Positions 40,570 through 62,655 of a stretch of DNA of 64,000 bases are shown here, piece after piece; position 1 is the first letter of the stretch, and the number at the start of each line of letters is the position of its first letter. A program made the translations under genes and the position numbers. The stretch is from Mycobacteriales bacterium (GTDB lineage: Bacteria > Actinomycetota > Actinomycetes > Mycobacteriales > QHCA01), in the NCBI GenBank assembly GCA_038276285.1, contig JBBPZR010000002.1, positions 87,454 to 151,453 of the forward strand, read 5' to 3'. The notes beneath the pieces are model-generated. The model was not told the origin of the DNA, did not search any database, and saw only the letters and a list, made by a program, of their open reading frames with translations.

Positions 40570-42405
40570 TCAGATGGACTGCAGCGCGCGCATCAGGTCG
40601 ACGAGGCCACCTCCCTCGAAGTTCGGGTCGCGACCGAGCGTGGTCGCCGAGTCGGTGAAGATGCGCTTGACCAGGTCGGGCCGGCCGATGAACTCGCGCC
40701 GCACGGACAGAAAGGCCGCCACCACGCCGGACACGTGCGGAGCGGCCATACTCGTGCCGCTGTCCTGAACGTAGACGGCAGCGTCCTCCTGGCCGGCCGG
40801 GAGCGAGACGGCCGCGCGCATCCGGCCGGCCGCCGCCGAGGTGATCTGTTCGCCCGGCGCGACCAGGTCCGGCTTGCGTCGGCCGTCGCCGGTGGGTCCC
40901 TTGGAGGAAAAGTACGAGACGCCGTACACGTGCGGCGAATCTCGGTGTGTCGAGCCGACGGTGATGGCTCGTTCGGCGTTCCCAGGATCGTTGATCGTCA
41001 TCGCGAGCCCAAACTGCGAGACCGTGCTCAGCTTGGGGTTCAGCGTGCCGTAACCGGAGTTGCCCGCTGCGACGACGACCACGACCCCGGTGCGCACGAG
41101 CTTGTCCACCTCCTGGCACAGGGGACTCTGGCCGCAGGCGAACCACGTCGGGTCGAAGTCGTAGCCGACGCTGAGGTTCACACCGTGGATGCGCGGGAGT
41201 TTGTCGCTCTCCGCGTTCAACTCGCGCACGTACGCCAAGGCCTCGATGACGCGGCTCACCCGGCTCTCCAGCGTTCCTCCGGCGCCGAGGACCTTGAGAC
41301 TCACCAGCTTGGCCCGGGGAGCCATCCCGTTTAGTCGCTCTTTCGGATCCGTCAGCGGCCGCGGCTGGCGCAGTGGCTCGTCGGGGTTATCGACGTTGAA
41401 GCGGTTCTCGGTGACGACTACCGCGCTCTTGTTCCACTGCCTCAGGCCGCCAGCGATGATGGCGGCGACGTGGGTGCCGTGACCGTCGGCGTCCTCGAGG
41501 GGGTCGTCCGCTTTCCCGTTCTCCGGCGGCAGAAAGCTGTGGTGCAGCTTTGCCACGGACGGGTCCGTGAGCGTGGCGTATCCCTGGAAGTGGGGATGCT
41601 TGGCGTCGATACCGGAATCGACCACCGCCCACACGACGTCGTCACCGAAGGAGTTGAACGACCGGTGAGCGGCGTCCGCCTTCACGGTGACCACCGAGGC
41701 ATCGATGAGCTTGTGCATCCGGAAGTCGGGCCAGATGCGATAGATGCTGCGCCTGGACCACACGATCGGTGCGGCGTCGGCTGCAACTAGACGCTTCATC
41801 TCTCCCAACGTCAGCACCCCGGTGGCGTACTCCTCCGCGAGCGGTTCGGGTCCCGGCCGGCCGGTTACCCGCCGCCACAGCCGGCGCAGCTCGTTCATCG
41901 CCGCTCGTGGGCCGCGCGCGTGGCGAAGGTTCAACTCGATCATCACGGGCATCGCGTCCGGGTCGTCGACACCGGCGCGCAACCGGCCATGCGCGGTACG
42001 CAGCGGCGGGGCGATCACGCCGCTGACCAGGCTCGACATGGCGGGGCGGACATCCGTCTCGCCGTCGTTGGCCAGGTCGCGCGAAGCATCCGTGCGTTCG
42101 GCCGGCTCGGCCAGCAGCCGCTGCGCCGCCTCCGCGGCTACGGCGGTGCCGTGGCTCGTCAGGCGTTTCCGGCCCCGTGGGGCAGTCTCGACCACGCCCT
42201 GGTCAACGAGTGTCGTGAAGGCGGCCAGGACGGCCGAGTGCCAGGTGGGCCGATCACCGTCGTACGTCCGATCCGTCGGCTCGAACTGGTCGGCGAACTG
42301 GACCGCGACCTCCTGGACTACCGCGTCGCCGGTGGCGGCCTTCGCTAGGTGGCTCATGGCGGAAAGGGTGCGGTCGAGCCACAGTTGCGACGGGTCGGGG
42401 GCCAT
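40570..42405 (-). CDS. Intracellular S8 (subtilisin-like) serine peptidase with an N-terminal winged-helix-like domain
   Basis: I trimmed the start to MAPDPSQLW (42405), which is preceded by a GAGAGG RBS. The triad motifs are AVVDSGIDAKHPHF, HGTHVAAIIAG and SGTSMAAPHVSG. There is no signal peptide. The N-terminal roughly 100 aa (..WHSAVLAAFTTLVDQGVVETAPRGRKRLTSHG) look like an Mrr_N-type wHTH. Confidence 0.85.
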   Translation of the reverse strand: MAPDPSQLWLDRTLSAMSHLAKAATGDAVVQEVAVQFADQFEPTDRTYDGDRPTWHSAVLAAFTTLVDQGVVETAPRGRKRLTSHGTAVAAEAAQRLLAEPAERTDASRDLANDGETDVRPAMSSLVSGVIAPPLRTAHGRLRAGVDDPDAMPVMIELNLRHARGPRAAMNELRRLWRRVTGRPGPEPLAEEYATGVLTLGEMKRLVAADAAPIVWSRRSIYRIWPDFRMHKLIDASVVTVKADAAHRSFNSFGDDVVWAVVDSGIDAKHPHFQGYATLTDPSVAKLHHSFLPPENGKADDPLEDADGHGTHVAAIIAGGLRQWNKSAVVVTENRFNVDNPDEPLRQPRPLTDPKERLNGMAPRAKLVSLKVLGAGGTLESRVSRVIEALAYVRELNAESDKLPRIHGVNLSVGYDFDPTWFACGQSPLCQEVDKLVRTGVVVVVAAGNSGYGTLNPKLSTVSQFGLAMTINDPGNAERAITVGSTHRDSPHVYGVSYFSSKGPTGDGRRKPDLVAPGEQITSAAAGRMRAAVSLPAGQEDAAVYVQDSGTSMAAPHVSGVVAAFLSVRREFIGRPDLVKRIFTDSATTLGRDPNFEGGGLVDLMRALQSI

Positions 42406-42439
42406 CGCGCTCACCTCTCGTGATCGATGGGATCGATGC

Positions 42440-44530
42440 CTACGAGCTGGGCGGGTCCGGGTTGGGCCCGCGCTGGACGGACTCTGATGAGGCAAGGCCG
42501 CGTCTTGCGCTGCGCTGCCTGAAGCCGACCAGGATGAGGGTCGCCCCGAAGATGATCAGCCAGTCTTTGACGAGGTTGTCGAGCGAACCGCGGACCAGGT
42601 ACACGATGCCGGCCGACAGGCCGACCACCGCGAGCACGGCGGAGACGATCTCCAGTCCACGTGTCGGCCGGGAGCCGCCCCTGATTGCGCCAACGATCTG
42701 GACGGGGCCATCGACCAACCAGAACATCACGACAATCGTCACCATCGTGTTCTCGGTGTCGTCATTCAGCGCGTTTGCCACGACGAGCCCCCCAGCGAGC
42801 AGCGACACCGTGGCGAGGATTTCCAACAATTGCCGCCGGCCCGCCCTGGCCTCGTCGGCGTCGAAAGACTGGATGACGCGGAGCGCGCCGTAAACGATCA
42901 ATACGAGGCCGAGCATCACGTGGCCGGCCCGGTACGGCACGTGCAAGGCCACGGCTGCCACCACGACGACGCCGCCGGCGACTATCGACGCAACGGGGGT
43001 TCGATTTGACCGGACGTGCGACCCGCCGGACGGCGTGGCTCCGAGCGGCGTCGGTGCCAGGCTGGGTATCCCCGCGGGTGTCGGGGAGTGGGCGGCCGGC
43101 TCCCGGACCGGGGCGGGTGGGTACGACGGTTCGCCCGCCGGGTGCGACGGGGAGGCTGAGGTGCGCTCGATGGCGGGCTGCGGTGCTTGCCGGGCCTCGG
43201 CGATGGGCCGGGGCGCCGGGATTGGGATCGACTCCGCCGTAACGATCGGCGTTGGATCGTGCGCCGCCGGCTCCTCCGGGCTTGGCGTCACTTCGACGTC
43301 GACAGGAATCAGGGCCTTGCCGGTGGGACCCTTGATGGCGATATTGCCGCGAAACTCGCCCGCTTGGGAGGTGTCGACCGATACGTCGAGGCCATCGGTC
43401 GTCTCCTCGATCCGGATCCAGCCCTGCGAGGGCTGGAACGTGCAGGCGCGGGCGATCGGGGGACCTAGCAGATGGATCTCACGGTGGACCGGCCTCGAAT
43501 CCTTGGCCACCTGCCCGAAGTGCAGGTCGCGCTCCCTCGTTTGGACGGCGCCCTCGCGGAGCGCCACTGCCGCGGCCTCGGCGACGTATTGGATGTCGGT
43601 GCGGGCGGTATCCTCCAGTGCGTTGTAGGCGCCTGCTGCGGCTGACAGGTCGTCGCTCGTCAGCCGTGCCCGCAGCTCGGTCACCGCACCGATGCGGGTG
43701 AACATGTTCGAGTCGGTTCGGGCGTCCTCCAGGTTCGGTGGGATGGGCAGTGGCCGGATGCGTCGCCGCCGGCTGCGGGCGAGGTACAGCTCCCCCTGCA
43801 TTTCGACGTCGCGGCTCGGCGTCTGATGCGGGTTCTGTTCGCGAACCCGGTCGAATAGGTAGTCGTACAACTCGTCTAGCGACACCCAGCCGTCCTCGTC
43901 GCGGTCGGCTTCGCCGGTGGCGAGTCCCTCCACCAGAGCGGTGGTGAACACCGATGGCTGGGGGTCGTGATCGTCGGCGAGCTGGTCGCCCTCGAAGGCG
44001 TACTCCATTGAGTTGGATGCGGTTATGACAGCCCGGCCGCGCCCACCGCCGAGCTTTCCGCCGGGAAAGCTGTCCAGAACGTTGACGTCCCCGGAACCGC
44101 GAACGGTTACACCCTGGCCGAATGCGCCCCCGTAGCAGCAATCCAGCAACAAAACGATGCTGCGCGACCGGCTCGTCCGCATGCACTGCTGGACGAAGTT
44201 CGCTGAGATCGCGGTGGAGCCAAGCCTGTTCGGGCGCGTGTTGCGGGCGGCGAAGTACAGCTCCCCGGACTCACTCTTCAGCCCGTGACAGGAGAAGTGA
44301 ACCAGGAGAACGTCGTCGGCCCGGCTCTCCGAGAACAGATCCTCGATCTGCGCCTGGACAACGTGCGCCGGCTCGTTGCGCGCCACCCGCACATCGAAGT
44401 CGCCGATCTCACGGTCGCCGAGGACACCTGCCAGCGCCTTCGCGTCCGCCGCCGGGGAGAGCAGGTGCCGCAGGCCCTCGTGTTCATAGTCGTCGCAGGC
44501 GACGATCAGTGCCTTCCGCCGGCCGTTCAC
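42440..44530 (-). CDS. Caspase-family (C14) peptidase with a C-terminal multi-TM module, EACC1-associated type
   Basis: I trimmed the start to the GTG at 44530 (VNGRRKALIVACDDY), which overlaps the EACC1 stop as GTGA. The catalytic His is in HFSCHG (codon at 44285-44287) and the Cys in LLLDCCYGG (44135-44140). After a long linker with a Pro-rich stretch, several hydrophobic helices occupy the last roughly 190 aa. Confidence 0.85.
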   Translation of the reverse strand: MNGRRKALIVACDDYEHEGLRHLLSPAADAKALAGVLGDREIGDFDVRVARNEPAHVVQAQIEDLFSESRADDVLLVHFSCHGLKSESGELYFAARNTRPNRLGSTAISANFVQQCMRTSRSRSIVLLLDCCYGGAFGQGVTVRGSGDVNVLDSFPGGKLGGGRGRAVITASNSMEYAFEGDQLADDHDPQPSVFTTALVEGLATGEADRDEDGWVSLDELYDYLFDRVREQNPHQTPSRDVEMQGELYLARSRRRRIRPLPIPPNLEDARTDSNMFTRIGAVTELRARLTSDDLSAAAGAYNALEDTARTDIQYVAEAAAVALREGAVQTRERDLHFGQVAKDSRPVHREIHLLGPPIARACTFQPSQGWIRIEETTDGLDVSVDTSQAGEFRGNIAIKGPTGKALIPVDVEVTPSPEEPAAHDPTPIVTAESIPIPAPRPIAEARQAPQPAIERTSASPSHPAGEPSYPPAPVREPAAHSPTPAGIPSLAPTPLGATPSGGSHVRSNRTPVASIVAGGVVVVAAVALHVPYRAGHVMLGLVLIVYGALRVIQSFDADEARAGRRQLLEILATVSLLAGGLVVANALNDDTENTMVTIVVMFWLVDGPVQIVGAIRGGSRPTRGLEIVSAVLAVVGLSAGIVYLVRGSLDNLVKDWLIIFGATLILVGFRQRSARRGLASSESVQRGPNPDPPSS

Positions 44531-44919
44531 TGGTCGCTCGCCCCGGCGGCGTGCCGGCCAACGAATAGCCCGATGAGCCGCTCCTGGTCGGCTGCCGACG
44601 CCTCGGAGAGTTCCAGCACGTCGCCCTCGATCTCCAGGCGGACCGTGCGACGGGTTCCTTCGCCGCGCGCGAGCCACTTCCTAATCGCGGAGACGACCGC
44701 CCGTAGGCTCTGGGCAGACCGGCCGAGCGTGATCAACAGCCCACCGGCCGCGACCACGTCGAACACCCTGGCGCCCGGCGGCGGCTCACCGGCCGGCAGC
44801 GCGGACGCTCTCTCCACGTCCAACTGGAGGAGTTCTTCGCGAAGGTATCCGATCAGGCTGTCGAGCCGCTCGGCATCCGCACCGTCTTCTCCCAGCTGAA
44901 GGCGCAATTCACCGCCCAT
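44527..44919 (-). CDS. Effector-associated constant component EACC1-like small protein
   Basis: I trimmed the start to MGGELRLQLGEDGADAERLDSLIGYLREELLQLD...VVAAGGLLITLG...RTVRLEIEGDVLELSEASAADQERLIGLF (130 aa), preceded by a G-rich RBS. The pattern matches my memory of the EACC1 family that pairs with caspase effectors. I have not verified this with an HMM. Confidence 0.6.
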   Translation of the reverse strand: MGGELRLQLGEDGADAERLDSLIGYLREELLQLDVERASALPAGEPPPGARVFDVVAAGGLLITLGRSAQSLRAVVSAIRKWLARGEGTRRTVRLEIEGDVLELSEASAADQERLIGLFVGRHAAGASDQ

Positions 44920-45084
44920 TGGCCCCCCTTCGCGCGGGTGAGGCCTTGCAGACAACACCAACACCCATGCTACCGACTGGGCCGGGCGGACAGTACGACA
45001 AACCTCGGTCGGCAACGAGACCCTTCACCGTCAAGCGTCCGGAACCGCGGCGCCAAGATAGACCTGTTTCGCGCAATGCTCCCG

Positions 45085-45876
45085 TCATCCGGCGTCCGGA
45101 CCTTCCGGTGAAACCTGCTTCGCGAATGCCCGCTTCGCGATCGGTTGCTCCGCGTCGAGTACCAACGGCTGGTCCGTTCGTGCGGCCGCCTGCTTGGCGC
45201 TGGCCAGCTCGCTGCCCGGCGTGGCGTAGATGACCTTCACGGCGCCGTTGCCGGATCCCCGGCGGTCGACCGGCGTTACCGCGGCGGGTTGGCCGTGCCC
45301 GTCGTCCACCCACAACTCGAAGTCGTCGTACTTGAAGAACGAGATCTCGGTGATCGGCCCCGGATAGTGGTGCACCCCACCGCCCTTCGGCAGCAAGCCC
45401 GTGTGCGCGTCCGCGGGCAGCGGCACGCTCGCGTTGCAGATGCTGTCGGTCCATCGCGCGACCCCGTCGGCATCGGTGATGGGGGTGTCGAGAAGACTGC
45501 GGATGCCGAGCTCCTCGACGGCCGCCGGGAACAGGGCGTAAAGCCGCCTCGCGTTCAGTCGCAGCATGTCGACCTTGGCCGGGTCCGCGCAAAACTGCGA
45601 CGACCACTCCATTCCGGCCAGGTTGCGCACGAGGAACCAGCCGTCGTCGTCCTTGAGCCACAAGCCGCCGCCGTGATGGTCCTGGTAGGGCGCCCTACCG
45701 TAGAGCAGACCGGCGACAGCCTCGGCCATCGCGACCATCCGTTTGCGGGACTTGACGTACGTCGCCGAGTCGGTGCGTCGCGGATGGCCGGGGATGTTGA
45801 TGCCCCACGGATGGTCCTCGCGTTCAATGTGCGGCTGACCCACCCCGGATGCGGAGGCACTCGGGTCACCTGTCAT
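45085..45876 (-). CDS. Hypothetical protein; no family recognised
   Basis: 263 aa. The start overlaps the stop of the catalase-related gene as ATGA, which suggests translational coupling. Third-position GC looks coding by eye. Confidence 0.7.
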   Translation of the reverse strand: MTGDPSASASGVGQPHIEREDHPWGINIPGHPRRTDSATYVKSRKRMVAMAEAVAGLLYGRAPYQDHHGGGLWLKDDDGWFLVRNLAGMEWSSQFCADPAKVDMLRLNARRLYALFPAAVEELGIRSLLDTPITDADGVARWTDSICNASVPLPADAHTGLLPKGGGVHHYPGPITEISFFKYDDFELWVDDGHGQPAAVTPVDRRGSGNGAVKVIYATPGSELASAKQAAARTDQPLVLDAEQPIAKRAFAKQVSPEGPDAG

Positions 45877-47072
45877 GTCTCAAAGTCCTCCTCACCGGTC
45901 GGCTCCAAATGATGGACCTGGTTCATGCTCTGGCGCAGCTCGGCCAGCTCCCAATACATCTGCCGCCGCGCACGGTTGGAGTTTCCGAGAGGCTTGTGCT
46001 GCGGCAAGCTGTGCCATGGGTTGAACCGCAGCACGTCGGCGAACCTGAGCTGCGCGTCGGAGTCGAAACGCTGGGCCGCGAGGTGCAGCCGAGCCACCGG
46101 GATGTACGGCGACAGACGCTCGGGCCATTTGACCGTGGCGTCTTCGAGAGGCATCCGGCGCGCGTCTGTCTGCACCTGCACCATGAAGTCGAAGTTCCAC
46201 TCGCCCTCGCAAAGTGTTCGGACCATGGCTTCGCGAAGGTAGTTTTCCGCCGGACGGGCCGGAATTTTGCTCCTCCCCCGCGACACTGGCTTCAACGAGT
46301 ACTGAACCGCCTGACCTTCGCCGAGCAGGAACGGAACGTTGCTGTAGTACTGCACCTCGAGCGGACTGGCGTGCATGGGTGAGTAGAGCAGCTGCATGAA
46401 CAAGTGCAGCAGGTGGAAATGGAACGGGTTCAACAGATATCCTAGCGGCGCTTTCGCGCGGACCCACCGCTGCATCTTCGCGTTCTCGCGGATGTCCGGT
46501 GTCACGAAACTCGCCGGAGACACGAGGATGAGATCCTGTGTCGCCACCTCGTCCGCCATGAGTTTCGGTCCGGCCACACCCATGATTTTGATGCCGACGG
46601 AGCACTGTCCGAGGTCTTCCAGGTCCGGCGGAGCGTACGGTCCCGGCCCGGAGAAGCGGACCCAGGCGGGGTAGCTGCCCGGCTCGGCAAACAGGCCCTG
46701 ACGCAGATGTGTCGGCAGCCCGGCCACGACCGAGAACTCGCCGCGCACGATGCCGAAGGTCTTCGTGTTGCCGAAGCGCTGGACAGACCCCGGCAGCCAG
46801 TTCTCCCGAGTGAACTTCGTGAGCTCGGCGATGATCTCCCGGGTGTAGCGCTCCTCGCCGGGCAGCAACCGCTCCTCCGCCAGACCGAGGTGCTCCTTGC
46901 GCCGCAACAGGTTTTGCAATGCCTGAGCAGCAGCGAACAGCGAGGGGCGCAGCCACCTGTCGAACTGCGGCCGGTACAGGAACTCCACCCGGCGCTCGAG
47001 ACGCCACAGCCACAGCACGAAGTCGCTCAGCGGGCGCAGGACGAGGAAGGTGAACAGTCCTTCGGGGTTCAT
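45873..47072 (-). CDS. Catalase-related hemoprotein (allene-oxide-synthase / hydroperoxide-lyase-like clade)
   Basis: 399 aa. QRFGNTKTFGIVRGEF aligns to catalase ERVVHAKGAGAFGYF. PAWVRFS aligns to catalase VRFS. NSNRARRQMYWE carries the R-x-x-x-Y proximal Tyr pattern (Tyr codon at 45954-45956). The distal His position is Asn (46767-46769). Confidence 0.7.
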   Translation of the reverse strand: MNPEGLFTFLVLRPLSDFVLWLWRLERRVEFLYRPQFDRWLRPSLFAAAQALQNLLRRKEHLGLAEERLLPGEERYTREIIAELTKFTRENWLPGSVQRFGNTKTFGIVRGEFSVVAGLPTHLRQGLFAEPGSYPAWVRFSGPGPYAPPDLEDLGQCSVGIKIMGVAGPKLMADEVATQDLILVSPASFVTPDIRENAKMQRWVRAKAPLGYLLNPFHFHLLHLFMQLLYSPMHASPLEVQYYSNVPFLLGEGQAVQYSLKPVSRGRSKIPARPAENYLREAMVRTLCEGEWNFDFMVQVQTDARRMPLEDATVKWPERLSPYIPVARLHLAAQRFDSDAQLRFADVLRFNPWHSLPQHKPLGNSNRARRQMYWELAELRQSMNQVHHLEPTGEEDFET

Positions 47073-47096: not shown

Positions 47097-47465
47097 TCAG
47101 CGCCGGGCGGCGGTCACCGCGAGCGCGGTGTTGCCCGCGGAGATCAGCGTCGTGAGCGCGGCCACCCGTGGGGGGAGCTCTCGGCGCAGCCCGGCGGTGA
47201 GCGCCGAGAGCGTGTCGGTGGCGTGGATGAGTACGGCGACACGGACCGCCCGCTCGCGCTGCTCACCGCGGAGGAGCAGCAGGTCGAAGCCGATCACCAC
47301 GGTGCGGACTCCGAACATCCGCAGCGGGTAGACGGCCGTCGGCTCACGCCTCACATCGGTGCCCAACCGGCCCAGGATGAACGCGGGCGCGACCAAGGCA
47401 ATAGTGCCGTTGACGATGCGAATGGCAGCCAGAGCGGTCCGGGCACGGTCCTGCGACAACAACAT
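47097..47465 (-). CDS. Small hydrophobic protein; first gene of the minus-strand heme operon
   Basis: I trimmed the start to MLLSQDRARTALAAIRIVNGTIALVAPAFILG (122 aa). The upstream part of the 312-aa track ORF is antisense to the plus-strand membrane protein. Confidence 0.55.
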   Translation of the reverse strand: MLLSQDRARTALAAIRIVNGTIALVAPAFILGRLGTDVRREPTAVYPLRMFGVRTVVIGFDLLLLRGEQRERAVRVAVLIHATDTLSALTAGLRRELPPRVAALTTLISAGNTALAVTAARR

Positions 47466-47505
47466 GTAAGGCAATCTGGCACCGTCGTGGCGGACCGTCA
47501 ACCGG

Positions 47506-47523
47506 CTGTCAAGTATTTGACAG
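47506..47523. promoter_or_regulatory. Palindrome in the divergent promoter region of the heme-enzyme locus
   Basis: CTGTCAA-GTAT-TTGACAG is a perfect 7-bp inverted repeat that contains TTGACA. It lies between the divergent starts at 47465 (-) and 47595 (+). Confidence 0.4.
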
Positions 47524-47594
47524 TCGTAGCCCCTTAACAAGTCAGCGTTCCCGGGCCATGCTGAAGTCAATAGTGGCGATTGGCAGGCGGACAC

Positions 47595-49115
47595 ATGGAA
47601 TCCACGAACCCGGCCCAGCAGGTTTGGCGCATGGTCATGTCCGCGCTGATCTTCGCCGTCATCCTCACGGTGCTCGCCTTCGCCACACTTCCCGGGTTCT
47701 CGTGGCAGATTCTGGCGCTGAAGGCCTTCCTGGTTTTCGTCCTCGGGCTGTTCCCGGGGTGGCTCTATCTCCAATTCATCGGTTTCAGGGCGTGGACCTT
47801 GTACGACGAATACGTCCTGAACCTGCATAGGCTGCGCATTGACGACCCACGCAACCTGCCTAAACCGCCGCCAGGTACCCCATTCTATGCGAGCTGGCGC
47901 GAGTCGCTGCCGGCCGGGATTCGGCTCGATCAGAACATCTATCTCAAGAAGTTCGAGGCCGCCTACGGCGCGTCCGCGGTTCCGCCGTCCCGGCGCGGGA
48001 ACGACGACGAGGACGCCGCTGCGATTCGCCGTCAACGGCTCACCACACAGATCAAGCAGGAACGTTTTGGACCCGTTCTATTGGCGACGGCTGTGTTCAC
48101 CGTGGGCTGGGCCACTGTGTTGCAGCCTGAGATATACCACGGCTCGTTTCTGCACCTCTTCGGCGATTTTCGACTCTCCGGACTGCCCCGGCTGCCACTT
48201 GACGCGCTCCGGATGGGCTACATCGGTTCGTACGCCTTTGTCGTGCAGTCGCTCGTCCGCCGATATTTTCAGCAGGACCTCAAGTCTCGTGCGTACGTCG
48301 GCTTCGTCGCACGCATCATCTTCGTCTCGGCCGTTGTAGTCGCGCTCCATCCGGTCTGGACTTCGCTGAAGTCAGGCGCCTCGGTCGAGGTTTCCGCGGC
48401 GTTCGTCTTGGGTTTCTACCCGGAGCTAGGACTTCGCCTGCTCAAGCAACGGGTGATGTCGTCGTTCAAGCGAGCGGCAAATGACGATGAGGAGCAGTAC
48501 CCCCTCCGAGACCTCGACGGCTGCAATCTCTGGTGCCAGGCGCGGTTGCTCGAGGAAGGCGTCGAGGACATGCAGAACCTCGTGACCGCTAACCTCGTGG
48601 ACCTGATGGTCAACACCCGGATGCCGGTGTACCGCATGCTCGACTGGATGGACCAGGCGTATCTCTACCTGCTGCTCGAGACTCCCAAAGGGACGGATTC
48701 GGCCGGGCGACGGGACCGCAGGGTGCTGCGCGGTTACGGCGTGCGGACCGCCAGCCAGCTGTGTGAGCTGGTCGAGGCGGGCGGGCCCCCGAAGTTGGTG
48801 GCCGGCCTTTCCAGGCTGCTCAACGTCGACAAGCTGGACAAGGACGACGGACTCCCCAGCCGAATCCGGGCGATGCACCGGACGCTCGGCGGCGAGGTGA
48901 ACCTCTGGCACATCCGCGCGTGGAAGCGCCGCGACTGGCTCGCCGAATCAAGACGTCCGACGACTGTCGACCTGACACCCGCCGGCCTTGTCGTTCCCAA
49001 GCCCAGACCGCAAGGAGGCGACCATGACCACCCAGCACAGGATCGGGGACCGGCAACTGCTGAGCCTCGACGGAACAGAGCTGGACAGGCTCTTCAGGAC
49101 CAGCCCGGCCGGTGA
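47595..49115 (+). CDS. Polytopic membrane protein with a C-terminal soluble helical region; family unknown
   Basis: The start is at MESTNPAQQVW. There are at least 6 hydrophobic helices in two clusters separated by a charged loop. The C-terminal part reads (..CNLWCQARLLEEGVEDMQNLVTANLVDLMVNTRM..LRGYGVRTASQLCELV) and looks like paired helix-hairpin-helix motifs. The 3' end overlaps the next gene by 92 nt. Confidence 0.65.
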   Translation: MESTNPAQQVWRMVMSALIFAVILTVLAFATLPGFSWQILALKAFLVFVLGLFPGWLYLQFIGFRAWTLYDEYVLNLHRLRIDDPRNLPKPPPGTPFYASWRESLPAGIRLDQNIYLKKFEAAYGASAVPPSRRGNDDEDAAAIRRQRLTTQIKQERFGPVLLATAVFTVGWATVLQPEIYHGSFLHLFGDFRLSGLPRLPLDALRMGYIGSYAFVVQSLVRRYFQQDLKSRAYVGFVARIIFVSAVVVALHPVWTSLKSGASVEVSAAFVLGFYPELGLRLLKQRVMSSFKRAANDDEEQYPLRDLDGCNLWCQARLLEEGVEDMQNLVTANLVDLMVNTRMPVYRMLDWMDQAYLYLLLETPKGTDSAGRRDRRVLRGYGVRTASQLCELVEAGGPPKLVAGLSRLLNVDKLDKDDGLPSRIRAMHRTLGGEVNLWHIRAWKRRDWLAESRRPTTVDLTPAGLVVPKPRPQGGDHDHPAQDRGPATAEPRRNRAGQALQDQPGR

Positions 49116-49485
49116 CTTGCCGACCGGCGACGCCGACGGGACGGTGCTGCTGTGGTCGGGCACCTGGCTAGGCCTTGCTGCAGCGCGGGTCGCGCGAGCC
49201 GTCGGCTGGCAGGGCAAGGCGTTCGATGCCGACGGACGCGGGCTCCGCAACAAGATCACGCCGTTCGGCGTGCGTGCGATCCGGGCGCAGGTCTACCCAG
49301 GGCAAAGCTGGGTTGACGGCGGCGACTGCATCGTTCTGGACTACTCGAAGAAGTCCCTGGTCGCACGCTGGGTCCGCGACGAGATTCGGCTGGTCGGGCC
49401 GGATCACTTCCTCGGTGTCGTGTGGTTGCGGCACCGGCGCGTCGCGGCATTTTCGCTGCGATTCGCTCGCGCCCTCGACGGCTGA
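49024..49485 (+). CDS. GXWXG / DUF4334-type small protein
   Basis: I trimmed the start to MTTQHRIGDR, which is preceded by CAAGGAGG. It has a GTWLG (GXWXG) motif, followed by ..NKITPFG..A.VYPG..DGG.CIVLDYS....RDEIRLVG.....GV. The family name is from memory. Confidence 0.65.
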   Translation: MTTQHRIGDRQLLSLDGTELDRLFRTSPAGDLPTGDADGTVLLWSGTWLGLAAARVARAVGWQGKAFDADGRGLRNKITPFGVRAIRAQVYPGQSWVDGGDCIVLDYSKKSLVARWVRDEIRLVGPDHFLGVVWLRHRRVAAFSLRFARALDG

Positions 49486-49492
49486 GTCCGCC

Positions 49493-50767
49493 GTGCCGCA
49501 CCAACTCGCCGTGACTGTGCGCGCACCAATCGCACCGGGGCGCAAAGCAGACGTCGTGCAATTGCTCTCCGACATCAACCGCAAGGGCGCGGCGAGCGGG
49601 CCGCTGCCCTTCGCCGAAATGGAAGGCGTGCACTTCGCGCGCTTGTTCGTGATCGACGACGCAACCGACCTCGAAGGTAGGTCGCTACCGGCCAGCCTGG
49701 TGTACATGGCCGACATCGACGCACCGCTGGGCCGTCACTGGGGTGAGCTCGCCGCCAAGGCGGGGCCTGGTCTCGACGAGGTATTCGGGCGCTGCGCCGA
49801 CTACCCCACCGAGCCGGTGACCCCGGGCGCCCGAACGGCCTGGCTCCGCGGCCACAGCGTCGCCAGCGGCGCCGTCTACGTCAACACCGTCGGCCGGGGG
49901 CTGCAGCAGATCCGGGGCGAGGCGTGGCTGCGGGAGGCGATCGAGGACTTCCTCGACGACCCCAGCGTGAGCCGGGCTCGGGCTTCCGCCACTGAAGTCC
50001 GAGCCGCCGTGCGCGAGTTCGTCGCGTCGCGCCCGGACCTGGCCTGGGCGCTGCGTCCCCCTTCTCCGCCGTCACTGGGCTTCCGACTGCGGGAAGCGGC
50101 CCACAAGGTCTGCGTCCCCCTCGTGGCGCTCCTCTTGTCACCCTTGCTGCTGCTTGCGCTGCCGGTCTGGGGGGTCTTGCTTCGCACGCATGAGCGGCGC
50201 GATGCGGCCAACCGCGAGCGTCCCAGTCTCGAACACGTGCGGATGCTCGACCGGTACGAGGATCACGCCACGCAGAACCCTTTCACCGCCGTGGGTCTGG
50301 TCAAGGGCGGGTGGTTCCGGCAACTGACGATCCGCGCGGTGCTCTACGCCACGAACTACGGCACCCGACACCTTTTCGCGAGGGGGAACCTCGCGGGCGT
50401 CAAGACGATCCATTTCGCCCGGTGGGTCAGCATCGACGACCGCCGTCGCGTCATCTTCGTGAGCAACTACGACGGCAGCCTGGAGAGCTACATGGACGAC
50501 TTCATCGACAAGGTCGCCTGGGGCCTCAACGCCGTCTTCAGCAACGGCTCCGGCTACCCGGCGACTCGCTGGCTCGTGCTCGACGGCGCGAAGGACGAGC
50601 AGGCCTTCAAGAACTACCTGCGCCGCGGGCAACTGCCGACCCAGGTGTGGTACTCGGCCTACGACACGCTCACCGCGCACAACGTCGCGACGAACGCCAG
50701 CCTGCGCGCCGGCCTATGGGCCGACCTGACGCCCGACCAGACTCGCGACTGGTTGACTCTGCTATGA
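49493..50767 (+). CDS. Hypothetical protein with two HFAR-motif halves (internal duplication)
   Basis: I trimmed the start to the GTG at 49493 (VPHQLAVTVRAPIAPG). The two related blocks are GVHFARLFVIDD (49631-49642 for HFAR) and TIHFARWVSIDD (50411-50422). The stop overlaps the DyP start as ATGA. Confidence 0.7.
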   Translation: MPHQLAVTVRAPIAPGRKADVVQLLSDINRKGAASGPLPFAEMEGVHFARLFVIDDATDLEGRSLPASLVYMADIDAPLGRHWGELAAKAGPGLDEVFGRCADYPTEPVTPGARTAWLRGHSVASGAVYVNTVGRGLQQIRGEAWLREAIEDFLDDPSVSRARASATEVRAAVREFVASRPDLAWALRPPSPPSLGFRLREAAHKVCVPLVALLLSPLLLLALPVWGVLLRTHERRDAANRERPSLEHVRMLDRYEDHATQNPFTAVGLVKGGWFRQLTIRAVLYATNYGTRHLFARGNLAGVKTIHFARWVSIDDRRRVIFVSNYDGSLESYMDDFIDKVAWGLNAVFSNGSGYPATRWLVLDGAKDEQAFKNYLRRGQLPTQVWYSAYDTLTAHNVATNASLRAGLWADLTPDQTRDWLTLL

Positions 50768-52140
50768 CGATTGAGCTGGACCTCCCCGATATCCAAGGCC
50801 TCGTCGCGCGGGGGTACGGCCAACTGCCCCATTCCCGCTTCCTGATGCTGTCGGTCACCGACCGCGCCGGCGCCCGTGAGGCGCTGAGCCGGCTACTGCC
50901 ACAGGTGACGACGGCTGACGAGCGCCCAGATGCGACGGCTCTCAATGTCGCGGTGACGGCGCACGGCCTGGCTGCGCTCGGTGTTCCGGATCGGGTCGCC
51001 GACGGTTTCCCCCGGGAGTTCCTCGCCGGCATGAGCGACCCGCACACGAGTCGTCTGTTGGGTGATCTCGACGGGTCCGCGCCGGAGCACTGGGCCTGGG
51101 GAGGGCCTGCGACGCCTCCGGTCGATGCCGCGCTGTTGACCTACGCGGCCGACGCGGCAGCGCTCGACCGGCAGTGCGACGCACTCGAACAGGATGTCCG
51201 GAGCAGCGGCTGGCGCGTCGCCGCGCGACTGGACACCCTGCCGCTGCAGCCAGACGAGCCGTTCGGCTTCCACGACGGCATCTCCCAGCCGCTGCTGGAG
51301 GGACTGCCCAGGGCGGCAGGGCGCGACGCGACCGTCCGCGCGGGTGAGTTCGTGCTCGGCTACCCCAACGAGTACGGCAAGCTCACCGACCGACCGCTCG
51401 TGGATGCCGGAGACGATCCTGCGGGCGTGTTGGCGCACAACGGCGGCCGCGACAACCGCAACGACCTCGGCCACAACGGCAGCTACCTCGTGGCGCGCAC
51501 GCTCCGCCAGGACGTCGACGGCTTCTGGCGATGGGCAAGGGAGGCGACTCGCGGCTCGGACGGCACTTCGGACGAGGCGCGCGCCGTTGCCCTCGCCGCC
51601 AAGGTGGTCGGGCGCTGGCCGAGCGGCGCATCGCTGGTCAAGACGCCCGAGGGCGACGATCCGGCTCTCGCCGACGACAACGACTTCGGCTACCACCATT
51701 CCGACCCGCATGGGTTCGCCTGCCCGATTGGCTCGCACGTACGCCGTGCCAACCCGCGCGATGCACTGGACCCCGACCCGGGTTCACCGGAGTCGATCGC
51801 CGTCAGCAACCGCCACCGGCTGTTGCGGCGCGGCCGCGTGTACCGCAATGACGACGGCGAGACCGGGCTGCATTTCCTGTGCATCGGCGCGAACCTCTCC
51901 CGCCAGTTCGAATTCGTCCAGCACACCTGGCTCGCCAACCCGAACTTCGCCGGGCTCTACGACGACGCCGACCCGCTGGTCGGCCCACGCGCTGCGCGGG
52001 GGGCGACGTTCACGGCACCCGGCCAACCCGTCCGCCAGCGCTACCGTGACCTGCCGCGGTTCGTCACCGTCCGCGGCGGCGCCTACCTGTTCCTCCCCGG
52101 TCTGCGGGCGTTGTCCTGGATCGCCGGGGACCATCCGTGA
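50764..52140 (+). CDS. Dye-decolorizing (DyP-type) heme peroxidase
   Basis: I trimmed the start to MTIELDLPDIQGLV. It has the GXXDG motif FGFHDGISQP (Asp at 51274-51276), the proximal His in GSHVRRANPRD (51736-51738) and the distal Arg context LLRRGRVY. Confidence 0.88.
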   Translation: MTIELDLPDIQGLVARGYGQLPHSRFLMLSVTDRAGAREALSRLLPQVTTADERPDATALNVAVTAHGLAALGVPDRVADGFPREFLAGMSDPHTSRLLGDLDGSAPEHWAWGGPATPPVDAALLTYAADAAALDRQCDALEQDVRSSGWRVAARLDTLPLQPDEPFGFHDGISQPLLEGLPRAAGRDATVRAGEFVLGYPNEYGKLTDRPLVDAGDDPAGVLAHNGGRDNRNDLGHNGSYLVARTLRQDVDGFWRWAREATRGSDGTSDEARAVALAAKVVGRWPSGASLVKTPEGDDPALADDNDFGYHHSDPHGFACPIGSHVRRANPRDALDPDPGSPESIAVSNRHRLLRRGRVYRNDDGETGLHFLCIGANLSRQFEFVQHTWLANPNFAGLYDDADPLVGPRAARGATFTAPGQPVRQRYRDLPRFVTVRGGAYLFLPGLRALSWIAGDHP

Positions 52141-52164: not shown

Positions 52165-53997
52165 ATGCGCGAGGCTGACGGTCACGGTTCTGCCGGCCGG
52201 TTCCACGACACTCCCTTCTGGCGGACCTACGACCGGCTGGCCAAATGGGCCGACCGCCGGTGGGGGTGGGACCGGCTGCCCAAGCCACTTGGCTTGGCCG
52301 TGCTGATCGGCGTACGGGACCTGCTGCGCCGCGAAAACCTGTTCGACACGAGCCACGAGCCGGCCACCGACCTGCCGCCCGTCGCCGCACCGGACCCACG
52401 CCACTCGACGGCGCGCGGCATCGACGGCAGCTACAACGATCTCGCCGCACCTCGGATGGGCATGGCGGGATCGCGCTTCGGCCGCAACATTCCCCCGGAC
52501 CTCACCGCCCAGCCGGCGGTCGAGACGATCCTCTCTTCACCGAGCCCGCGCGAGGTCAGCCGGTCACTTCTGACCCGGACGACGTTCGTGCCAGCAGAGT
52601 CCGTCAACGCCCTCGTCGCCGCCTGGCTGCAGTTCATGATCCACGACTGGTTCAGCCACGGTAAGAGCCCCAAGGACGACCCGTGGGAGGTGCGCCTGCT
52701 CGACGACGACCCGTGGCCCGACCGTCCAATGAGGATCATGCGCTCGCGACCGGACCCGACCAGACCTCCCGGCGCCCGCGGACCCGCGACCTACGCCAAC
52801 TCGGAGACGCATTGGTGGGACGCCTCGCAGATCTATGGAAGCAACCGCGAGTGGCACGACTTCGTCCGCACCGGCCAGGACGGCAAGCTCAAGGTGAACC
52901 CTGACGGGACGCTGCCCAGGCCCACCCACCCTGACCACGATCCCTCCCGCGCCCCTGGCTTCTGGGTGGGCCTGTCGATGATGCAGACCCTGTTCACCCT
53001 GGAGCACAACGCGATCTGCGACCGGCTCCGGGCCGACTACCCGAATTGGGCGGACGACGACCTGTTCCAGCGCGCCCGCCTGGTCAACGCGGCCCTCATC
53101 GCGAAGATCCACACCGTGGAGTGGACGCCCGCGGTGATCAGCCACCCCACAGCGGTGACCGGCCTGCGGGCGAACTGGTGGGGCATCGCCGGCGAGCGGG
53201 TCAGCCGCCTGTTCGGCCGGCTCAGCTCCAGCGAGGTGATCAGCGGCATCCCAGGATCACGCACCGAGCACTACGGCGTTCCGTACGCCCTCACCGAGGA
53301 GTTCGTCGCCGTGTACCGAATGCACCCCCTCGTGCCCGATGACTACCGGCTGCGATCAACCGCTGACGACACCGTCTTGCGGGAATGCACCTTCCGTGAC
53401 CTCGCCGGTCCGAACGCCCTGGAGGTCGTGGACAAGATCGGCCTCTGCGACCTCTTCTATTCCTTCGGTACACAGAATCCCGGCCTTGTCTGCCTGCACA
53501 ACTTCCCGCGCTTCATGCAGGAGTTCGAGCGGCCCGACGGCATCCTGCAGGACCTGGGCGCCACCGATATCCTCCGCTCACGGGAGCTCGGCGTGCCGCG
53601 GTACAACGAGTTCCGCCGCCTACTGCACCTGCGACCCGCCAACGACTTCAACGACCTGACCGACAACCCGACGTGGGCCCGCGAGATCGAGCGCGTCTAC
53701 CACGGCGACATCGAGCAGGTCGACGTGACGGTCGGCATGTACGCGGAGAAACGGCCGAAGGGGTTCGCGTTCAGCGACACCGCGTTCAGGATCTTTGCGC
53801 TGATGGCCTCTAGACGGCTCAACAGCGACCGGTTCTTCACCACCGACTACACGCCCGCGGTCTACACGCGCACGGGTCTGGACTGGATCGCGGACAACAC
53901 GATGGCGACGGTTCTGTTGAGGCACTACCCCGGCCTTCGCCCCGCGATGCGCCAGGTCGACAACGCCTTCGCCCCATGGAAGCAAGCGTCTGGATGA
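52165..53997 (+). CDS. Heme peroxidase-cyclooxygenase superfamily fatty-acid dioxygenase (alpha-dioxygenase/COX-like)
   Basis: 610 aa. AAWLQFMIHDWFSHG carries the distal His (52642-52644). HYGVPYALTEEFVAVYRMHPLVPD carries the Y-x-x-H arrangement (Tyr 53314-53316, His 53323-53325) seen in COX and plant alpha-DOX. RSRELGVPRYNEFRRLL is also typical. Confidence 0.85.
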   Translation: MREADGHGSAGRFHDTPFWRTYDRLAKWADRRWGWDRLPKPLGLAVLIGVRDLLRRENLFDTSHEPATDLPPVAAPDPRHSTARGIDGSYNDLAAPRMGMAGSRFGRNIPPDLTAQPAVETILSSPSPREVSRSLLTRTTFVPAESVNALVAAWLQFMIHDWFSHGKSPKDDPWEVRLLDDDPWPDRPMRIMRSRPDPTRPPGARGPATYANSETHWWDASQIYGSNREWHDFVRTGQDGKLKVNPDGTLPRPTHPDHDPSRAPGFWVGLSMMQTLFTLEHNAICDRLRADYPNWADDDLFQRARLVNAALIAKIHTVEWTPAVISHPTAVTGLRANWWGIAGERVSRLFGRLSSSEVISGIPGSRTEHYGVPYALTEEFVAVYRMHPLVPDDYRLRSTADDTVLRECTFRDLAGPNALEVVDKIGLCDLFYSFGTQNPGLVCLHNFPRFMQEFERPDGILQDLGATDILRSRELGVPRYNEFRRLLHLRPANDFNDLTDNPTWAREIERVYHGDIEQVDVTVGMYAEKRPKGFAFSDTAFRIFALMASRRLNSDRFFTTDYTPAVYTRTGLDWIADNTMATVLLRHYPGLRPAMRQVDNAFAPWKQASG

Positions 53998-55120: not shown

Positions 55121-57361
55121 TCACAATCTCGGCGGGGTCGGAATACTCCTATACCGGACCTTGAATATTTCGGGGGGCCGGTCTGGCGGTCGCAGTATCG
55201 GCGGTTGCGGCAACAGTCCCCGTCGATCACCGCGTTCCAAAAGCTCTACCTCGAGCACGCCGATCTTCAGTCGGCTAGAATTAGGGAGCAGATATGCCGC
55301 GAGGGGAAGCAAGAGCAATACAGCAATGATCGCCGCGAACCCGGCCGAACTCAAGCGATGCTCCCAAAGTAGCCACGTGATTAGGCCTAGCAGCACGATG
55401 GCCAGGCCAGTCACGACTGGCGCGAATCTGCGAGGCAGGGGACGCGGGCCGCTGGCCAGAGACCGTATGTACTTATCGGCGGTAATGAGTTCCACGCTGC
55501 CAGCACCGGCAATCTGAGCCGCGCGCCGCCATGCCGCGCGTGCGTCACGGAGATGACGTAGTAGTAGTTGCGCCTCCCCCTCAAGGAGGAAGAGTCTTGC
55601 TTGGTCGCGGCGCTCGTGCGGCGGCAGCGTTTCGCTTGCCTCCCACAGGGACTTAGCCTTGCCGATGTCGTCCAGGGCGGCCCGCGCCTCCTCGCGGTCG
55701 CTGTCTCGATCGGCTAGCGTGAACCGGATTCCAGCCCTCACTCCGTAGAGCCGCCACGTTGTCTGCCAGTTCGCATCGACGCTAAGCCGGATCGCCTGGT
55801 CTATCCCAGCTTCCGCTTCGTAAGGCAGATCCAGCCGGTTGAGGACGTCGGCGAGCGTTGCGAAAGCTGTCGGCGAAGCATCGCCGAGGCTAATCGACTC
55901 CTGACAGGCCTGGCGGGCCTCAGAAAGATCGTCACCAATTTGCAATAGGACGTATCCAATTCCCTCATATGCCTGCGACAAGGTATCGGTGGAGCCGCTG
56001 TTCCGCGCCAAATCGCGGGCCTTCTCATATGCGAGCAACGCCTCCAGATGCCTCCCAAGGGCGCAATAAGCTCCTCCGCGCCCAACCTGCAGCCTCCCAT
56101 CTGCTGGGTATCTGAGGCGCTCGGCTTCGCGATAGTCATCTAGTGCCTCAGCCTCCATGCCAAGTCGGCAGCGAACTCCAGCTCTCAAAAAGTAGGCGGG
56201 CGCATTACCAGGATCTTGCTCAATGACCTGGTCTATGACGCGCTTTGCCTCAGCTGGCCGCCCCGCGATGTTTAGTACGGCAGCCCGCGTACGCTGCAGG
56301 TTCGGATATCGATCGTTGATGCTGGCGGCTTTATCGTAGGCCTTTAGCGCCTCGTCGTACTGGCGATGCAACGCCCTACTGGAACCGAGGCTCATCCATG
56401 AACCAACGTCGGTATCCGCGCGCCTGACCAGTCGCTCATACATGGCGGCGGCGGACGCGAAGCGATCTAGCTCGTAGAGAATTGCTGCCAGCCACTCATC
56501 CAGATCAAGACTCCGCTCGAGAGTATCGGAGTAGCCATGTTTACGCGCCTTATTGAAAGCGGAGAGTGCCCGCGCAAACAGCCGCCGAGATTCTCGATGT
56601 TCCACTCCATCTGCTCCGCCGAGTTGGTACAGGCAGGCACCACGCCAGACGTGGAGGTTGGCGACGTCCGCAAAGCCGCGTTCGAGAGCATCATCAAAAA
56701 GGCTGAGAGCAGCCCCGTAATCTCGGGCGACGGTGTACGCCCGGAACCCAGAGCCGAACTCCGCTTCGCCCGGGGCCGCAGCTGGCTCTTCGGACGGTTG
56801 CTCCTCGAATTGTGGGGTGAAGTCCTTAGTCAGCGTCCGCATGCGGTCCGCCTCAGCCGCATCAAAGAGAATGCCTTGAACCGAGCCGCCAGGTCGACTG
56901 AAGTCAGTCATCACCTGTACTGCGAAGTCGAGGGGGCCATTACTCGAAAAAGGACGGGCGTTGGGGATTCGATCGTAGGCATCGAACAGGAACGTCTCCG
57001 GCACGCCGACGTATACGGGGGCAGACGCTCGCAGTTTGGCGAGCCGGCCGGGAAGCTCATCAGCATGCTCGATGAGCAGCACGGCCTCGGAACCCTTGGG
57101 AACGTCATGGGTCCATGGCGCGACGTCATTTGCTTCAAGGTAGGGAACGCCCCGCACAGCCGGAGCTACGAAGGTGGCCATTGCACGGGCAGACTCGGTG
57201 ACTAGGTCTTCCAGCAGCCGGGCGAGCCCTTGAGCGTCGTCTTCATCACGCAGCAGCACGAGGAAGGCGTACCGCTGGTCCGACCGGTCGGCTTCCAATG
57301 CGTCCATGTTGGACAATCTTGCCTTAGTTGCGCGCAGGCCTGCAGCGTTCCTCCCTCCCAT
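55121..57361 (-). CDS. TPR-repeat protein with an unknown N-terminal domain and C-terminal TM helices; lower GC than its surroundings
   Basis: 746 aa. The central roughly 400 aa are TPR-like repeats with a recurring A..Y/F....A...P pattern. The C-terminus has two hydrophobic helices (VVTGLAIVLLGLITWLLW, FAAIIAVLLLLPLAAYLL). The start is Met at 57361 or 57307. Codon usage is visibly more A/T-rich than in the neighbours. Confidence 0.75.
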   Translation of the reverse strand: MGGRNAAGLRATKARLSNMDALEADRSDQRYAFLVLLRDEDDAQGLARLLEDLVTESARAMATFVAPAVRGVPYLEANDVAPWTHDVPKGSEAVLLIEHADELPGRLAKLRASAPVYVGVPETFLFDAYDRIPNARPFSSNGPLDFAVQVMTDFSRPGGSVQGILFDAAEADRMRTLTKDFTPQFEEQPSEEPAAAPGEAEFGSGFRAYTVARDYGAALSLFDDALERGFADVANLHVWRGACLYQLGGADGVEHRESRRLFARALSAFNKARKHGYSDTLERSLDLDEWLAAILYELDRFASAAAMYERLVRRADTDVGSWMSLGSSRALHRQYDEALKAYDKAASINDRYPNLQRTRAAVLNIAGRPAEAKRVIDQVIEQDPGNAPAYFLRAGVRCRLGMEAEALDDYREAERLRYPADGRLQVGRGGAYCALGRHLEALLAYEKARDLARNSGSTDTLSQAYEGIGYVLLQIGDDLSEARQACQESISLGDASPTAFATLADVLNRLDLPYEAEAGIDQAIRLSVDANWQTTWRLYGVRAGIRFTLADRDSDREEARAALDDIGKAKSLWEASETLPPHERRDQARLFLLEGEAQLLLRHLRDARAAWRRAAQIAGAGSVELITADKYIRSLASGPRPLPRRFAPVVTGLAIVLLGLITWLLWEHRLSSAGFAAIIAVLLLLPLAAYLLPNSSRLKIGVLEVELLERGDRRGLLPQPPILRPPDRPPEIFKVRYRSIPTPPRL

Positions 57362-59081: not shown

Positions 59082-59094
59082 GCGCGAGGCCGCG

Positions 59095-60318: not shown

Positions 60319-60342
60319 GGCAGGACCTTCACGGCAGGACCT

Positions 60343-61248: not shown

Positions 61249-61304
61249 TGTTAGAGCGTAGATGCCGCCGCGCGGCGGTGTGCGCTGACCGACAGGATGA
61301 GGCG

Positions 61305-61964: not shown

Positions 61965-62101
61965 CCGTGACGAGCTTGCCTCTCGCCGTTTCGGATGGGC
62001 GAGTCGACGCCCACCGCCCTGCGACCGTCTGTCATCAAGTGAGCTATGACGCACGTTTCGACAGACGAACCGGGATCCCGGCCCCTTGCCATGACACACT
62101 G

Positions 62102-62128
62102 TTGGCACTCCCCTTAAGAGAGTGCCAG
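62102..62128. promoter_or_regulatory. CIRCE-like HrcA operator
   Basis: TTGGCACTC-N9(CCCTTAAGA)-GAGTGCCAG compares well with the CIRCE consensus TTAGCACTC-N9-GAGTGCTAA. It lies 32 nt upstream of the GTG of the zinc-ribbon gene. Confidence 0.75.
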
Positions 62129-62159
62129 TCTTGAGAATGGCAAGGCCAGGAGGTCTCGG

Positions 62160-62570: not shown

Positions 62571-62655
62571 TTCCTCCACAGTCGGTGCTCGGCCGACGGC
62601 TGCCGGTGCCTCGATCTGGTTAGGGTCGTCTCCTGGTTCAGCGACAGGAGGACAC

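Follow-up and report, generated by a model that had tools for sequence, protein, structure and literature searches.

A family of duplicated α+β-barrel proteins encoded beside class C/D DyP-type peroxidases, and its possible role as a membrane-tethering subunit

Introduction

A stretch of 64,000 nucleotides (nt) from a Mycobacteriales bacterium (contig JBBPZR010000002.1, positions 87,454 to 151,453; hereafter the window, in which all coordinates are given) contains an open reading frame (ORF) for a protein of 424 amino acids (aa), here called the target, immediately followed by the gene of a class C/D DyP-type peroxidase. The natural substrates, activation and physiological role of such bacterial DyPs are largely unknown (PMC10820274, on the closest solved relative). 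A partner that is co-inherited with the peroxidase, coupled to it and sometimes fused to it makes DyP physiology experimentally approachable, and the pairing described here is a lead to the cellular role of one DyP clade. An earlier note, made from the sequence alone, had proposed that the target arose by tandem duplication of one fold, that it might be a divergent member of the superfamily of DyP, chlorite dismutase and EfeB (CDE), possibly binding haem or lipid, and that it acts as a partner of the DyP.

Results

The target gene and its family

The target ORF begins with GTG, a start that agrees with the consensus N-terminus (MPHQxAVT) of 66 homologues, and its product is identical to the database protein P0001. 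As the earlier note had described, the motif HFAR occurs twice, at residues 47 and 307, each time within a longer block, and the TGA of the target gene overlaps the ATG of the DyP gene in an ATGA tetranucleotide (Table 1). Throughout the family the second block follows the signature tIHFARW...F.SNYDGSwEsYl.DFI.

When homologues of the target are clustered at 90% identity, over 4200 clusters result, and at 50% identity 2537; their source names are 'hypothetical' throughout. None of the models of Pfam (2025), NCBIfam (2026) and PADLOC matched the target; a DinB_2 match with an E value of 0.06 was judged to be noise. Extending the Pfam comparison to 66 diverse members of the family (E ≤ 1, the 25 most recurrent of 40 families) revealed no recurring family, and no ABM, Dabb, EthD or SchA model among these. 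Sequence and profile searches of the PDB with the target returned noise or transmembrane-helix matches to its hydrophobic insert only, and in full-text searches of the literature neither the family nor its association with DyP was found described. The family is undescribed, widespread and outside the coverage of Pfam and NCBIfam. The superfold predicted for it is a known one, but the family, its putative membrane-hairpin architecture and its arrangement with DyP as two components are new.

Table 1 Features of the target locus. Coordinates refer to the window; aa, residues of the target; AF2, AlphaFold2; KD19, 19-residue Kyte-Doolittle mean hydropathy.
Feature	Position	Strand	Remarks
Target gene, predicted 424-aa pseudo-dimeric α+β-barrel protein	49493..50767	+	ORF, GTG start, homologues, AF2
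Predicted N-terminal ferredoxin-like unit	49493..49897, aa 1-135	+	strands 5-13, 46-54, 68-75, 127-130
First HFAR-x3-IDD block EGVHFARLFVIDDATD	49622..49669, aa 44-59	+	H47; strand β2 of the N-terminal half
Predicted helical insertion linking the halves	49898..50254, aa 136-254	+	AF2 helices 137-155, 166-179, 195-214, 216-235, 246-254
Conserved hydrophobic segment, putative hairpin, AHKVCVPLVALLLSPLLLLALPVWGVLL	50099..50182, aa 203-230	+	KD19 2.5; basic flanks
Predicted C-terminal ferredoxin-like unit	50255..50764, aa 255-424	+	
Second block KTIHFARWVSIDDRRRVIFVSNYDGS	50402..50479, aa 304-329	+	H307, W311, D327-G328
ATGA stop/start overlap	50764..50767	+	target TGA with DyP ATG
Partner DyP-type peroxidase, class C/D (V)	50764..52140	+	cytoplasmic, 458 aa, complete catalytic set, no signal peptide
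FABP/calycin-like β-barrel protein (predicted)	49024..49485	+	153 aa; AAGGAGG ribosome-binding site before ATG
Fatty-acid α-dioxygenase homologue (An_peroxidase)	52165..53997	+	24 nt after DyP
Catalase-related (allene-oxide-synthase-like) protein	45873..47072	-	399 aa; divergently encoded
Small membrane protein, weakly DUF4267-like	47097..47465	-	about 122 aa; in 45/80 loci, usually beside the α-dioxygenase gene

A conserved gene pair with DyP

The partner DyP is intact. It carries GFHDG (D171), HVRRANPR (H325) and RRGRVY and reaches a TIGR01413 score of 93 bits; its matches include the Deinococcus radiodurans enzyme (8re3, E 5e-60) as well as fungal-type and class C/D DyPs (4g2c, 5c2i). The stop/start overlap, as read from the nucleotide sequence, indicates translational coupling of the two genes.

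This arrangement recurs in nearly all the loci surveyed. We sampled 80 genomic loci with target homologues of 40-62% identity, spanning Actinomycetota, Chloroflexota, Acidobacteriota, Pseudomonadota, Cyanobacteria, Verrucomicrobiota, Rokubacteria, Dormibacterota and others, and a DyP homologue lay directly downstream in 79 of them; in the sole exception (L033) the contig ends 100 nt past the target gene. Four more distant loci (31-37% identity), from Sporocytophaga, Segetibacter, a Rhodothermales metagenome-assembled genome and a metagenome contig, all retained a DyP (37-45% identity) in the same position, and none of the other genes of the cluster was detected in these four (tblastn, E ≤ 1e-3), indicating that the conserved core is the target-DyP gene pair. 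Taken together, an intact class C/D DyP is encoded immediately 3' of the target in 83 out of 83 assessable loci from some ten phyla. The distance between both genes, calculated for 77 loci, had a median of 7 nt; it did not exceed 30 nt in 63 loci, and in 25 the genes overlapped by 4 nt. The pairwise-identity matrices of target and DyP correlated with r = 0.88, the top value of all pairs of cluster genes, a figure that is confounded by shared phylogeny.

Both proteins also occur as a single polypeptide. In the target-DyP fusion P0134 the DyP portion is 46% identical to the DyP of the window, and further fusions of this type are P0153, P0225, P0234, P0251 and Rhizobium leguminosarum BA011_RS34570, while Novosphingobium aromaticivorans SARO_RS19865 and Sulfitobacter IV89_RS16865 are fusions of a cytochrome P450 (P450), the target and DyP. 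The linker from the C-terminal half of the target to DyP measures about 8-10 aa in the fusions. Skermanella has three overlapping genes for target, DyP and P450, and two-part fusions without DyP were found as P450-target (P0189) and as a target joined to an endonuclease/exonuclease/phosphatase (EEP) domain (EEP-target, P0124). The survey and the natural fusions strongly support the earlier proposal that the target is a DyP partner.

Some observations on the fused partners may be added. The giant P450-target-DyP chains of 1443 and 1620 aa (L085 3814-8145 on N. aromaticivorans pNL2 and L086 3790-8652 on a Sulfitobacter plasmid) each join two different haem domains through the α+β-barrel module, and are annotated merely as 'Dyp-type peroxidase domain-containing protein' and 'cytochrome P450'. 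A resemblance to P450s that use hydroperoxides, of the CYP74 or prostacyclin-synthase type, was considered for the fused P450, which looks like an ordinary bacterial one (best match EryK, E 1e-9), and no inference was drawn from it. On a R. leguminosarum plasmid an EEP gene follows the target-DyP fusion (L087 4098-8267), and with the direct fusion in P0124 (692 aa) EEP appears as a second recurrent accessory partner.

Internal duplication and predicted fold

The tandem duplication suspected from the two HFAR blocks was confirmed by two comparisons. Local Smith-Waterman alignment of residues 1-200 with residues 241-424 gave a score of 71, a value reached by none of 500 shuffled comparisons (30.0 ± 4.8, maximum 52), and hhalign aligned profiles of the N-terminal half (aa 1-135) and the C-terminal half (aa 255-424), built from 66 diverse homologues with 32-55% identity, over 121 columns with a probability of 99.8% and an E value of 2.8e-28. 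Consistently, the AlphaFold2 (AF2) model of the target, obtained from a 67-sequence alignment with a mean predicted local distance difference test (pLDDT) of 87.4 and a predicted template-modelling score (pTM) of 0.88, shows two β-α-β-β-α-β units, formed by residues 5-130 and 261-388, with a helical insertion between them (aa 137-254).

The model was compared to the PDB with Foldseek, a check already proposed in the earlier note, and α+β-barrel similarity was indeed found. The best match, with E values of 9e-6 and 5e-5 and a probability of 1.0, was WhiE-ORFI (9lmn), a tandem ABM/SchA-like protein of type II polyketide spore-pigment clusters; about 396-399 columns were aligned, with template-modelling (TM) scores of 0.36-0.46 and a sequence identity of 9-10%. 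Single ABM domains matched weakly (E 0.2-0.7), among them 3gz7 (probability 0.87), 3mcs, 3f44, 4dn9 and IsdI (2zdp, probability 0.38), and a ferredoxin-like repeat protein (3gn6) and sulfur oxygenase reductase were further weak matches. The similarity is one of predicted structure: the target has no sequence match to PF03992 (ABM), although an ABM-type barrel unit is present in the model, and a search of the PDB with the profile of the target family did not retrieve 9lmn at E ≤ 10. On the basis of the model, the target belongs to the dimeric α+β-barrel superfold and its structurally nearest relatives are ABM-type proteins.

A hydrophobic hairpin and the uneven conservation of the halves

A feature of the insertion that had escaped the earlier note is a strongly hydrophobic segment at the tip of a helix-break-helix of the AF2 model (helices 195-214 and 216-235). 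Using the 19-residue Kyte-Doolittle mean hydropathy with a threshold of 1.6, a comparable segment exceeded the threshold in 62 of 66 family members. The uncharged run in these segments had a median length of 28.5 aa, a central proline or glycine was present in 61 of the 66 members, and basic residues flank the segment on both sides, followed by a conserved R..E..D. The matches of the target-family profile in the PDB were transmembrane helices only. Most simply, the segment would be a hairpin that dips into the membrane. No signal peptide was found in the target or in the partner DyP. Given this, the basic flanks and the fusion of DyP after the C-terminal half, both barrel halves should be cytoplasmic, a placement that the barrel model also demands.

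Conservation is unevenly distributed along the protein. Mean identity was 49% in the C-terminal half, rising to 59% in its core (aa 298-390), compared to 32% in the N-terminal half and 31% in the insert, and the C-terminal half displays the near-universal signature tIHFARW...F.SNYDGSwEsYl.DFI.K...GL...WSN..GFP.T...GA...FK...R..Q..T.vWYsaY. Individual residues stand out as well: Tyr333 is invariant, as are W311, D327 and R377 of the C-terminal half, and His47, His307 and Cys101 are near-invariant. One cluster has Gln in place of H307, and the fusion P0134 apparently lacks C101, in a stretch where the alignment is uncertain.

The wider operon

In the window and in many related loci the target-DyP pair is part of a larger set of genes, which the earlier note had not recognised. 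The gene directly upstream ends 7 nt before the target gene. Its most likely start is the ATG at 49024; compared with this, the longest ORF (48988-49485) with its 165 aa extends too far, and the 122 aa of the database entry P0269 are apparently too few. A homologue of this gene was present within 74 of the 80 loci, directly upstream of the target in 58 of them, and in many Streptomyces it is fused to the N-terminus of the target. The sequence gave no identification of the product, and the fold alone resolved its class: the AF2 model (pLDDT 79) had Tcur_1030 (4mve) as its best fold match (TM 0.66), followed by many fatty-acid-, retinoid- and bile-acid-binding proteins (probability 0.7-0.94), so that, judged from the model, it is a barrel of the fatty-acid-binding protein (FABP)/calycin type. 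A GXWXG hint in one member (E 0.13) was too weak and was left unused.

Downstream of DyP, the α-dioxygenase homologue (4hhr, E 6e-115) retains the FMIHDW motif with the distal His and the YRMH motif with Tyr and His, and has counterparts in 54 of the 80 loci. The divergently encoded catalase-related protein, present in 67 loci, has no Pfam match; its family profile retrieved the coral catalase-related allene oxide synthase (AOS; 1u5u, E 4.7e-5) and MAP_2744c (3e4w, E 0.017). This protein has an invariant R-x3-Y near the C-terminus, and its distal His may be an Asn, in a region where the alignment is unreliable. In some lineages P450 and EEP recur as partners. No model related to polyketide synthases was found by Pfam among the annotated neighbours in the window and in eight related loci (L081-L088).

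The genomic context thus formed by the FABP-like gene, the α-dioxygenase and the AOS-like protein suggests that the lipid-related role considered in the earlier note fits, and a conserved bacterial operon of α-dioxygenase, AOS-like protein, FABP-like barrel and DyP is a candidate prokaryotic oxylipin pathway.

Two gene calls in the divergent part of the cluster deserve a remark. The mechanical call of a 312-aa ORF at 47097-48035 for the small membrane protein is too long and would overlap the ORF of a predicted multi-helix membrane protein of 511 aa (47580-49115, + strand), located between the divergent halves of the cluster. The latter has no Pfam or NCBIfam match and no homologue in the 80 related loci, and looks like an insertion specific to the window.

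Discussion

Proposed role of the target and alternative explanations

We give an even chance to the proposal that, in a two-component DyP, the target is the subunit which tethers the peroxidase to the membrane and offers it a hydrophobic substrate. According to this proposal the target would be the non-haem subunit of the system. Its two ABM-like ferredoxin folds would pair as a pseudo-dimer to form an α+β barrel, the hairpin centred on Pro/Gly between the halves would dip into the cytoplasmic face of the membrane, and the conserved C-terminal half would dock on the N-terminus of the cytoplasmic class C/D DyP. The target would thereby tether a soluble peroxidase to the membrane, and would bind and present to it a hydrophobic substrate derived from the membrane or from lipids. 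The likeliest substrates would be fatty-acid (hydro)peroxide products of the co-encoded α-dioxygenase and catalase-related enzyme, or, as an alternative, a quinol-type reductant. What was directly observed or computed comprises the fold class and its duplication, the conserved hydrophobic segment, a gene that is strictly adjacent to that of DyP, coupled to it and at times fused with it, and the neighbouring lipid enzymes; the hydrophobic-ligand context (FABP-like gene, α-dioxygenase, AOS-like protein, P450 and EEP partners) supports the proposal. We infer from these the physical complex through the C-terminal half, the topology of the hairpin, the hand-over of a substrate and the identity of that substrate.

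Several observations weigh against such a role. The fold likeness of the target to WhiE-ORFI is modest, as indicated by the TM scores, and a hydrophobic run of about 28 residues might in principle also cross the membrane just once. In the core of the C-terminal half many polar and aromatic residues are invariant across phyla, and such strong conservation fits an active site as well as an interface. Moreover, the pair in Bacteroidota has no lipid-oxygenating neighbour, and a fatty-acid hydroperoxide substrate may hold for this reason for some lineages only.

A broader proposal is put forward more tentatively, as a possibility that falls clearly short of even: that target and DyP constitute an unrecognised, membrane-associated two-subunit peroxidase, widespread in soil and aquatic bacteria, which transforms or detoxifies fatty-acid hydroperoxides or oxidises membrane quinols, and which in many Actinomycetota, Chloroflexota and Acidobacteriota is also the terminal module of an oxylipin pathway of α-dioxygenase and catalase-related AOS. 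If true, a large clade of class C/D DyPs would gain its first physiological partner and a substrate class, and a two-subunit peroxidase might explain the inactivity at neutral pH of isolated relatives such as the D. radiodurans enzyme (DrDyP).

Among ABM-fold proteins there are non-catalytic, chaperone-like members that assist multi-enzyme complexes, a precedent for the tethering proposal, but also cofactor-free oxygenases (PMC6689052), and a catalytic role of the conserved C-terminal half is therefore the main rival explanation. In that case the target itself would catalyse a reaction one step before or after DyP, as a cofactor-independent oxygenase, isomerase or cyclase of the ABM type with a hydrophobic substrate, either a quinol- or anthrone-like aromatic or an oxylipin, and its product or a peroxide intermediate would be the DyP substrate. 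The nearest folds are ABM/SchA-like, the invariant residues of the C-terminal half are typical of a catalytic pocket while the N-terminal half looks degenerate, and the co-occurrence with P450, α-dioxygenase and AOS-like enzymes points to a pathway of several oxidative steps. The ABM enzymes ActVA-Orf6 and YgiN oxidise anthrone or quinol substrates, chemically near the classic dye substrates of DyP, which likewise favours catalysis. However, neither the ABM model of Pfam nor any characterised enzyme matched the target in sequence, the C-terminal His is Gln in one cluster, and the strict 1:1 adjacency with DyP, together with fusion, even where the pathway genes are missing, looks more like a subunit. 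Weighing these points we regard an enzymatic target as unlikely, though compatible with its being a subunit, both roles not being mutually exclusive.

Binding of haem by the target, as an IsdG-like binder or degrader, as a haem chaperone for DyP and the other haem enzymes of the cluster, or as a b-type electron relay between the membrane and DyP or P450, seems improbable to us. The α+β-barrel fold includes haem binders, the symmetric His47/His307 pair, Tyr333 and Cys101 are potential ligands, and the target is always beside haem enzymes or sandwiched between them (P450-target-DyP). On the other hand, no similarity was found to the IsdG, MhuD and HemQ sequence families, and the IsdI-type matches were far weaker than the ABM/SchA match. 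Haem binding is a weaker rival than catalysis because of the Gln at position 307 in one cluster and the apparent absence of C101 from P0134, subject to the uncertain alignment mentioned above.

The least probable explanation by far is that the target was born by duplication of the adjacent DyP gene and is a paralogue in the CDE superfamily that has diverged strongly: both proteins are tandem ferredoxin-like α+β barrels with adjoining genes, but when a profile of 77 partner DyPs was compared with the whole target, with each half and with the insert, hhalign gave a probability below 1% every time, and the strict idea of a DyP paralogue is rejected on this lack of a profile relation. The other searches agreed. 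Pfam DyP_N, Dyp_perox_C and TIGR01413 did not match the target, no Pfam DyP model matched any of 66 family members, no DyP, chlorite dismutase (Cld), HemQ or EfeB chain was among the best 50 Foldseek matches in the PDB, and neither the GXXDG, HxRRxNPR and RRG patterns nor a proximal-His/distal-Arg triad with DyP spacing was found in the target. The target is not a detectable DyP paralogue; thus the duplicated ferredoxin-like barrel envisaged in the earlier note is retained in the AF2 model, whereas membership in the CDE superfamily is not upheld.

Comparison with known systems

WhiE-ORFI, a SchA/CurD-like protein, is the best full-length structural match and resembles the target in being a single chain with two ABM-like units, accessory and without an assigned catalytic role. 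Their contexts differ, that of the target being DyP (83 of 83 assessable loci) and not a polyketide synthase, and we found no evidence in WhiE-ORFI of a hydrophobic hairpin insertion such as that of the target. Other ABM proteins, both ForS-type chaperone-like ones and IsdG/IsdI, share with the target model the β-α-β-β-α-β unit that pairs into a barrel; unlike them, the target would be a fused pseudo-dimer with a 120-aa helical, possibly membrane-inserted segment. The CDE haem proteins, to which the target is linked functionally through the adjacent DyP, are also built from two ferredoxin-like halves of which the C-terminal one is better conserved, but the target shows no profile match, fold match or haem-site motif relating it to them.

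With regard to function, non-peroxidase partners encoded in the same operon fix the location of DyP in EfeUOB iron uptake and in encapsulin-packaged DyPs, as would the target. In those systems the partner is a permease/cupredoxin pair or an HK97-fold shell, and the peroxidases belong to class A or B; the target, in contrast, is predicted to be an α+β barrel with a membrane hairpin and its DyP is of class C/D. The extended operon also recalls the eukaryotic oxylipin cascades (plant α-dioxygenase, coral catalase-related AOS, fungal DOX-P450) in having α-dioxygenase and AOS-like homologues, and some lineages add a P450, as in the fungal DOX-P450 fusions. To our knowledge these cascades contain no DyP or α+β-barrel component, and, unlike them, the target-DyP core pair occurs also without oxylipin genes.

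Genomic surroundings

The cluster is flanked by genes of another kind. At 42440-44677 lies the gene of a caspase-like Peptidase_C14 protein with C-terminal DUF308 membrane repeats, accompanied by a subtilase gene (40570-42495) and a 162-aa ORF (44527-45015), and on the other side of the cluster a 746-aa tetratricopeptide repeat (TPR) protein is encoded at 55121-57361. The caspase, subtilase and TPR genes (40570-45015 and 55121-57361) may be a conflict- or defence-type island. A defence-system role was considered for the target and discarded, as these flanking genes are not conserved in related loci and PADLOC was negative. Beyond them, the window looks like an ordinary actinomycete chromosome: positions 1-40000 and 59000-64000 encode CysN/CysD-like, GlmU-like and RpfB-like (DUF348-G5-transglycosylase) proteins, an MMPL transporter, a GGDEF-EAL protein, methionyl-tRNA synthetase (MetRS), a PMT mannosyltransferase, MoeA and a fatty-acid desaturase (12870-13841).

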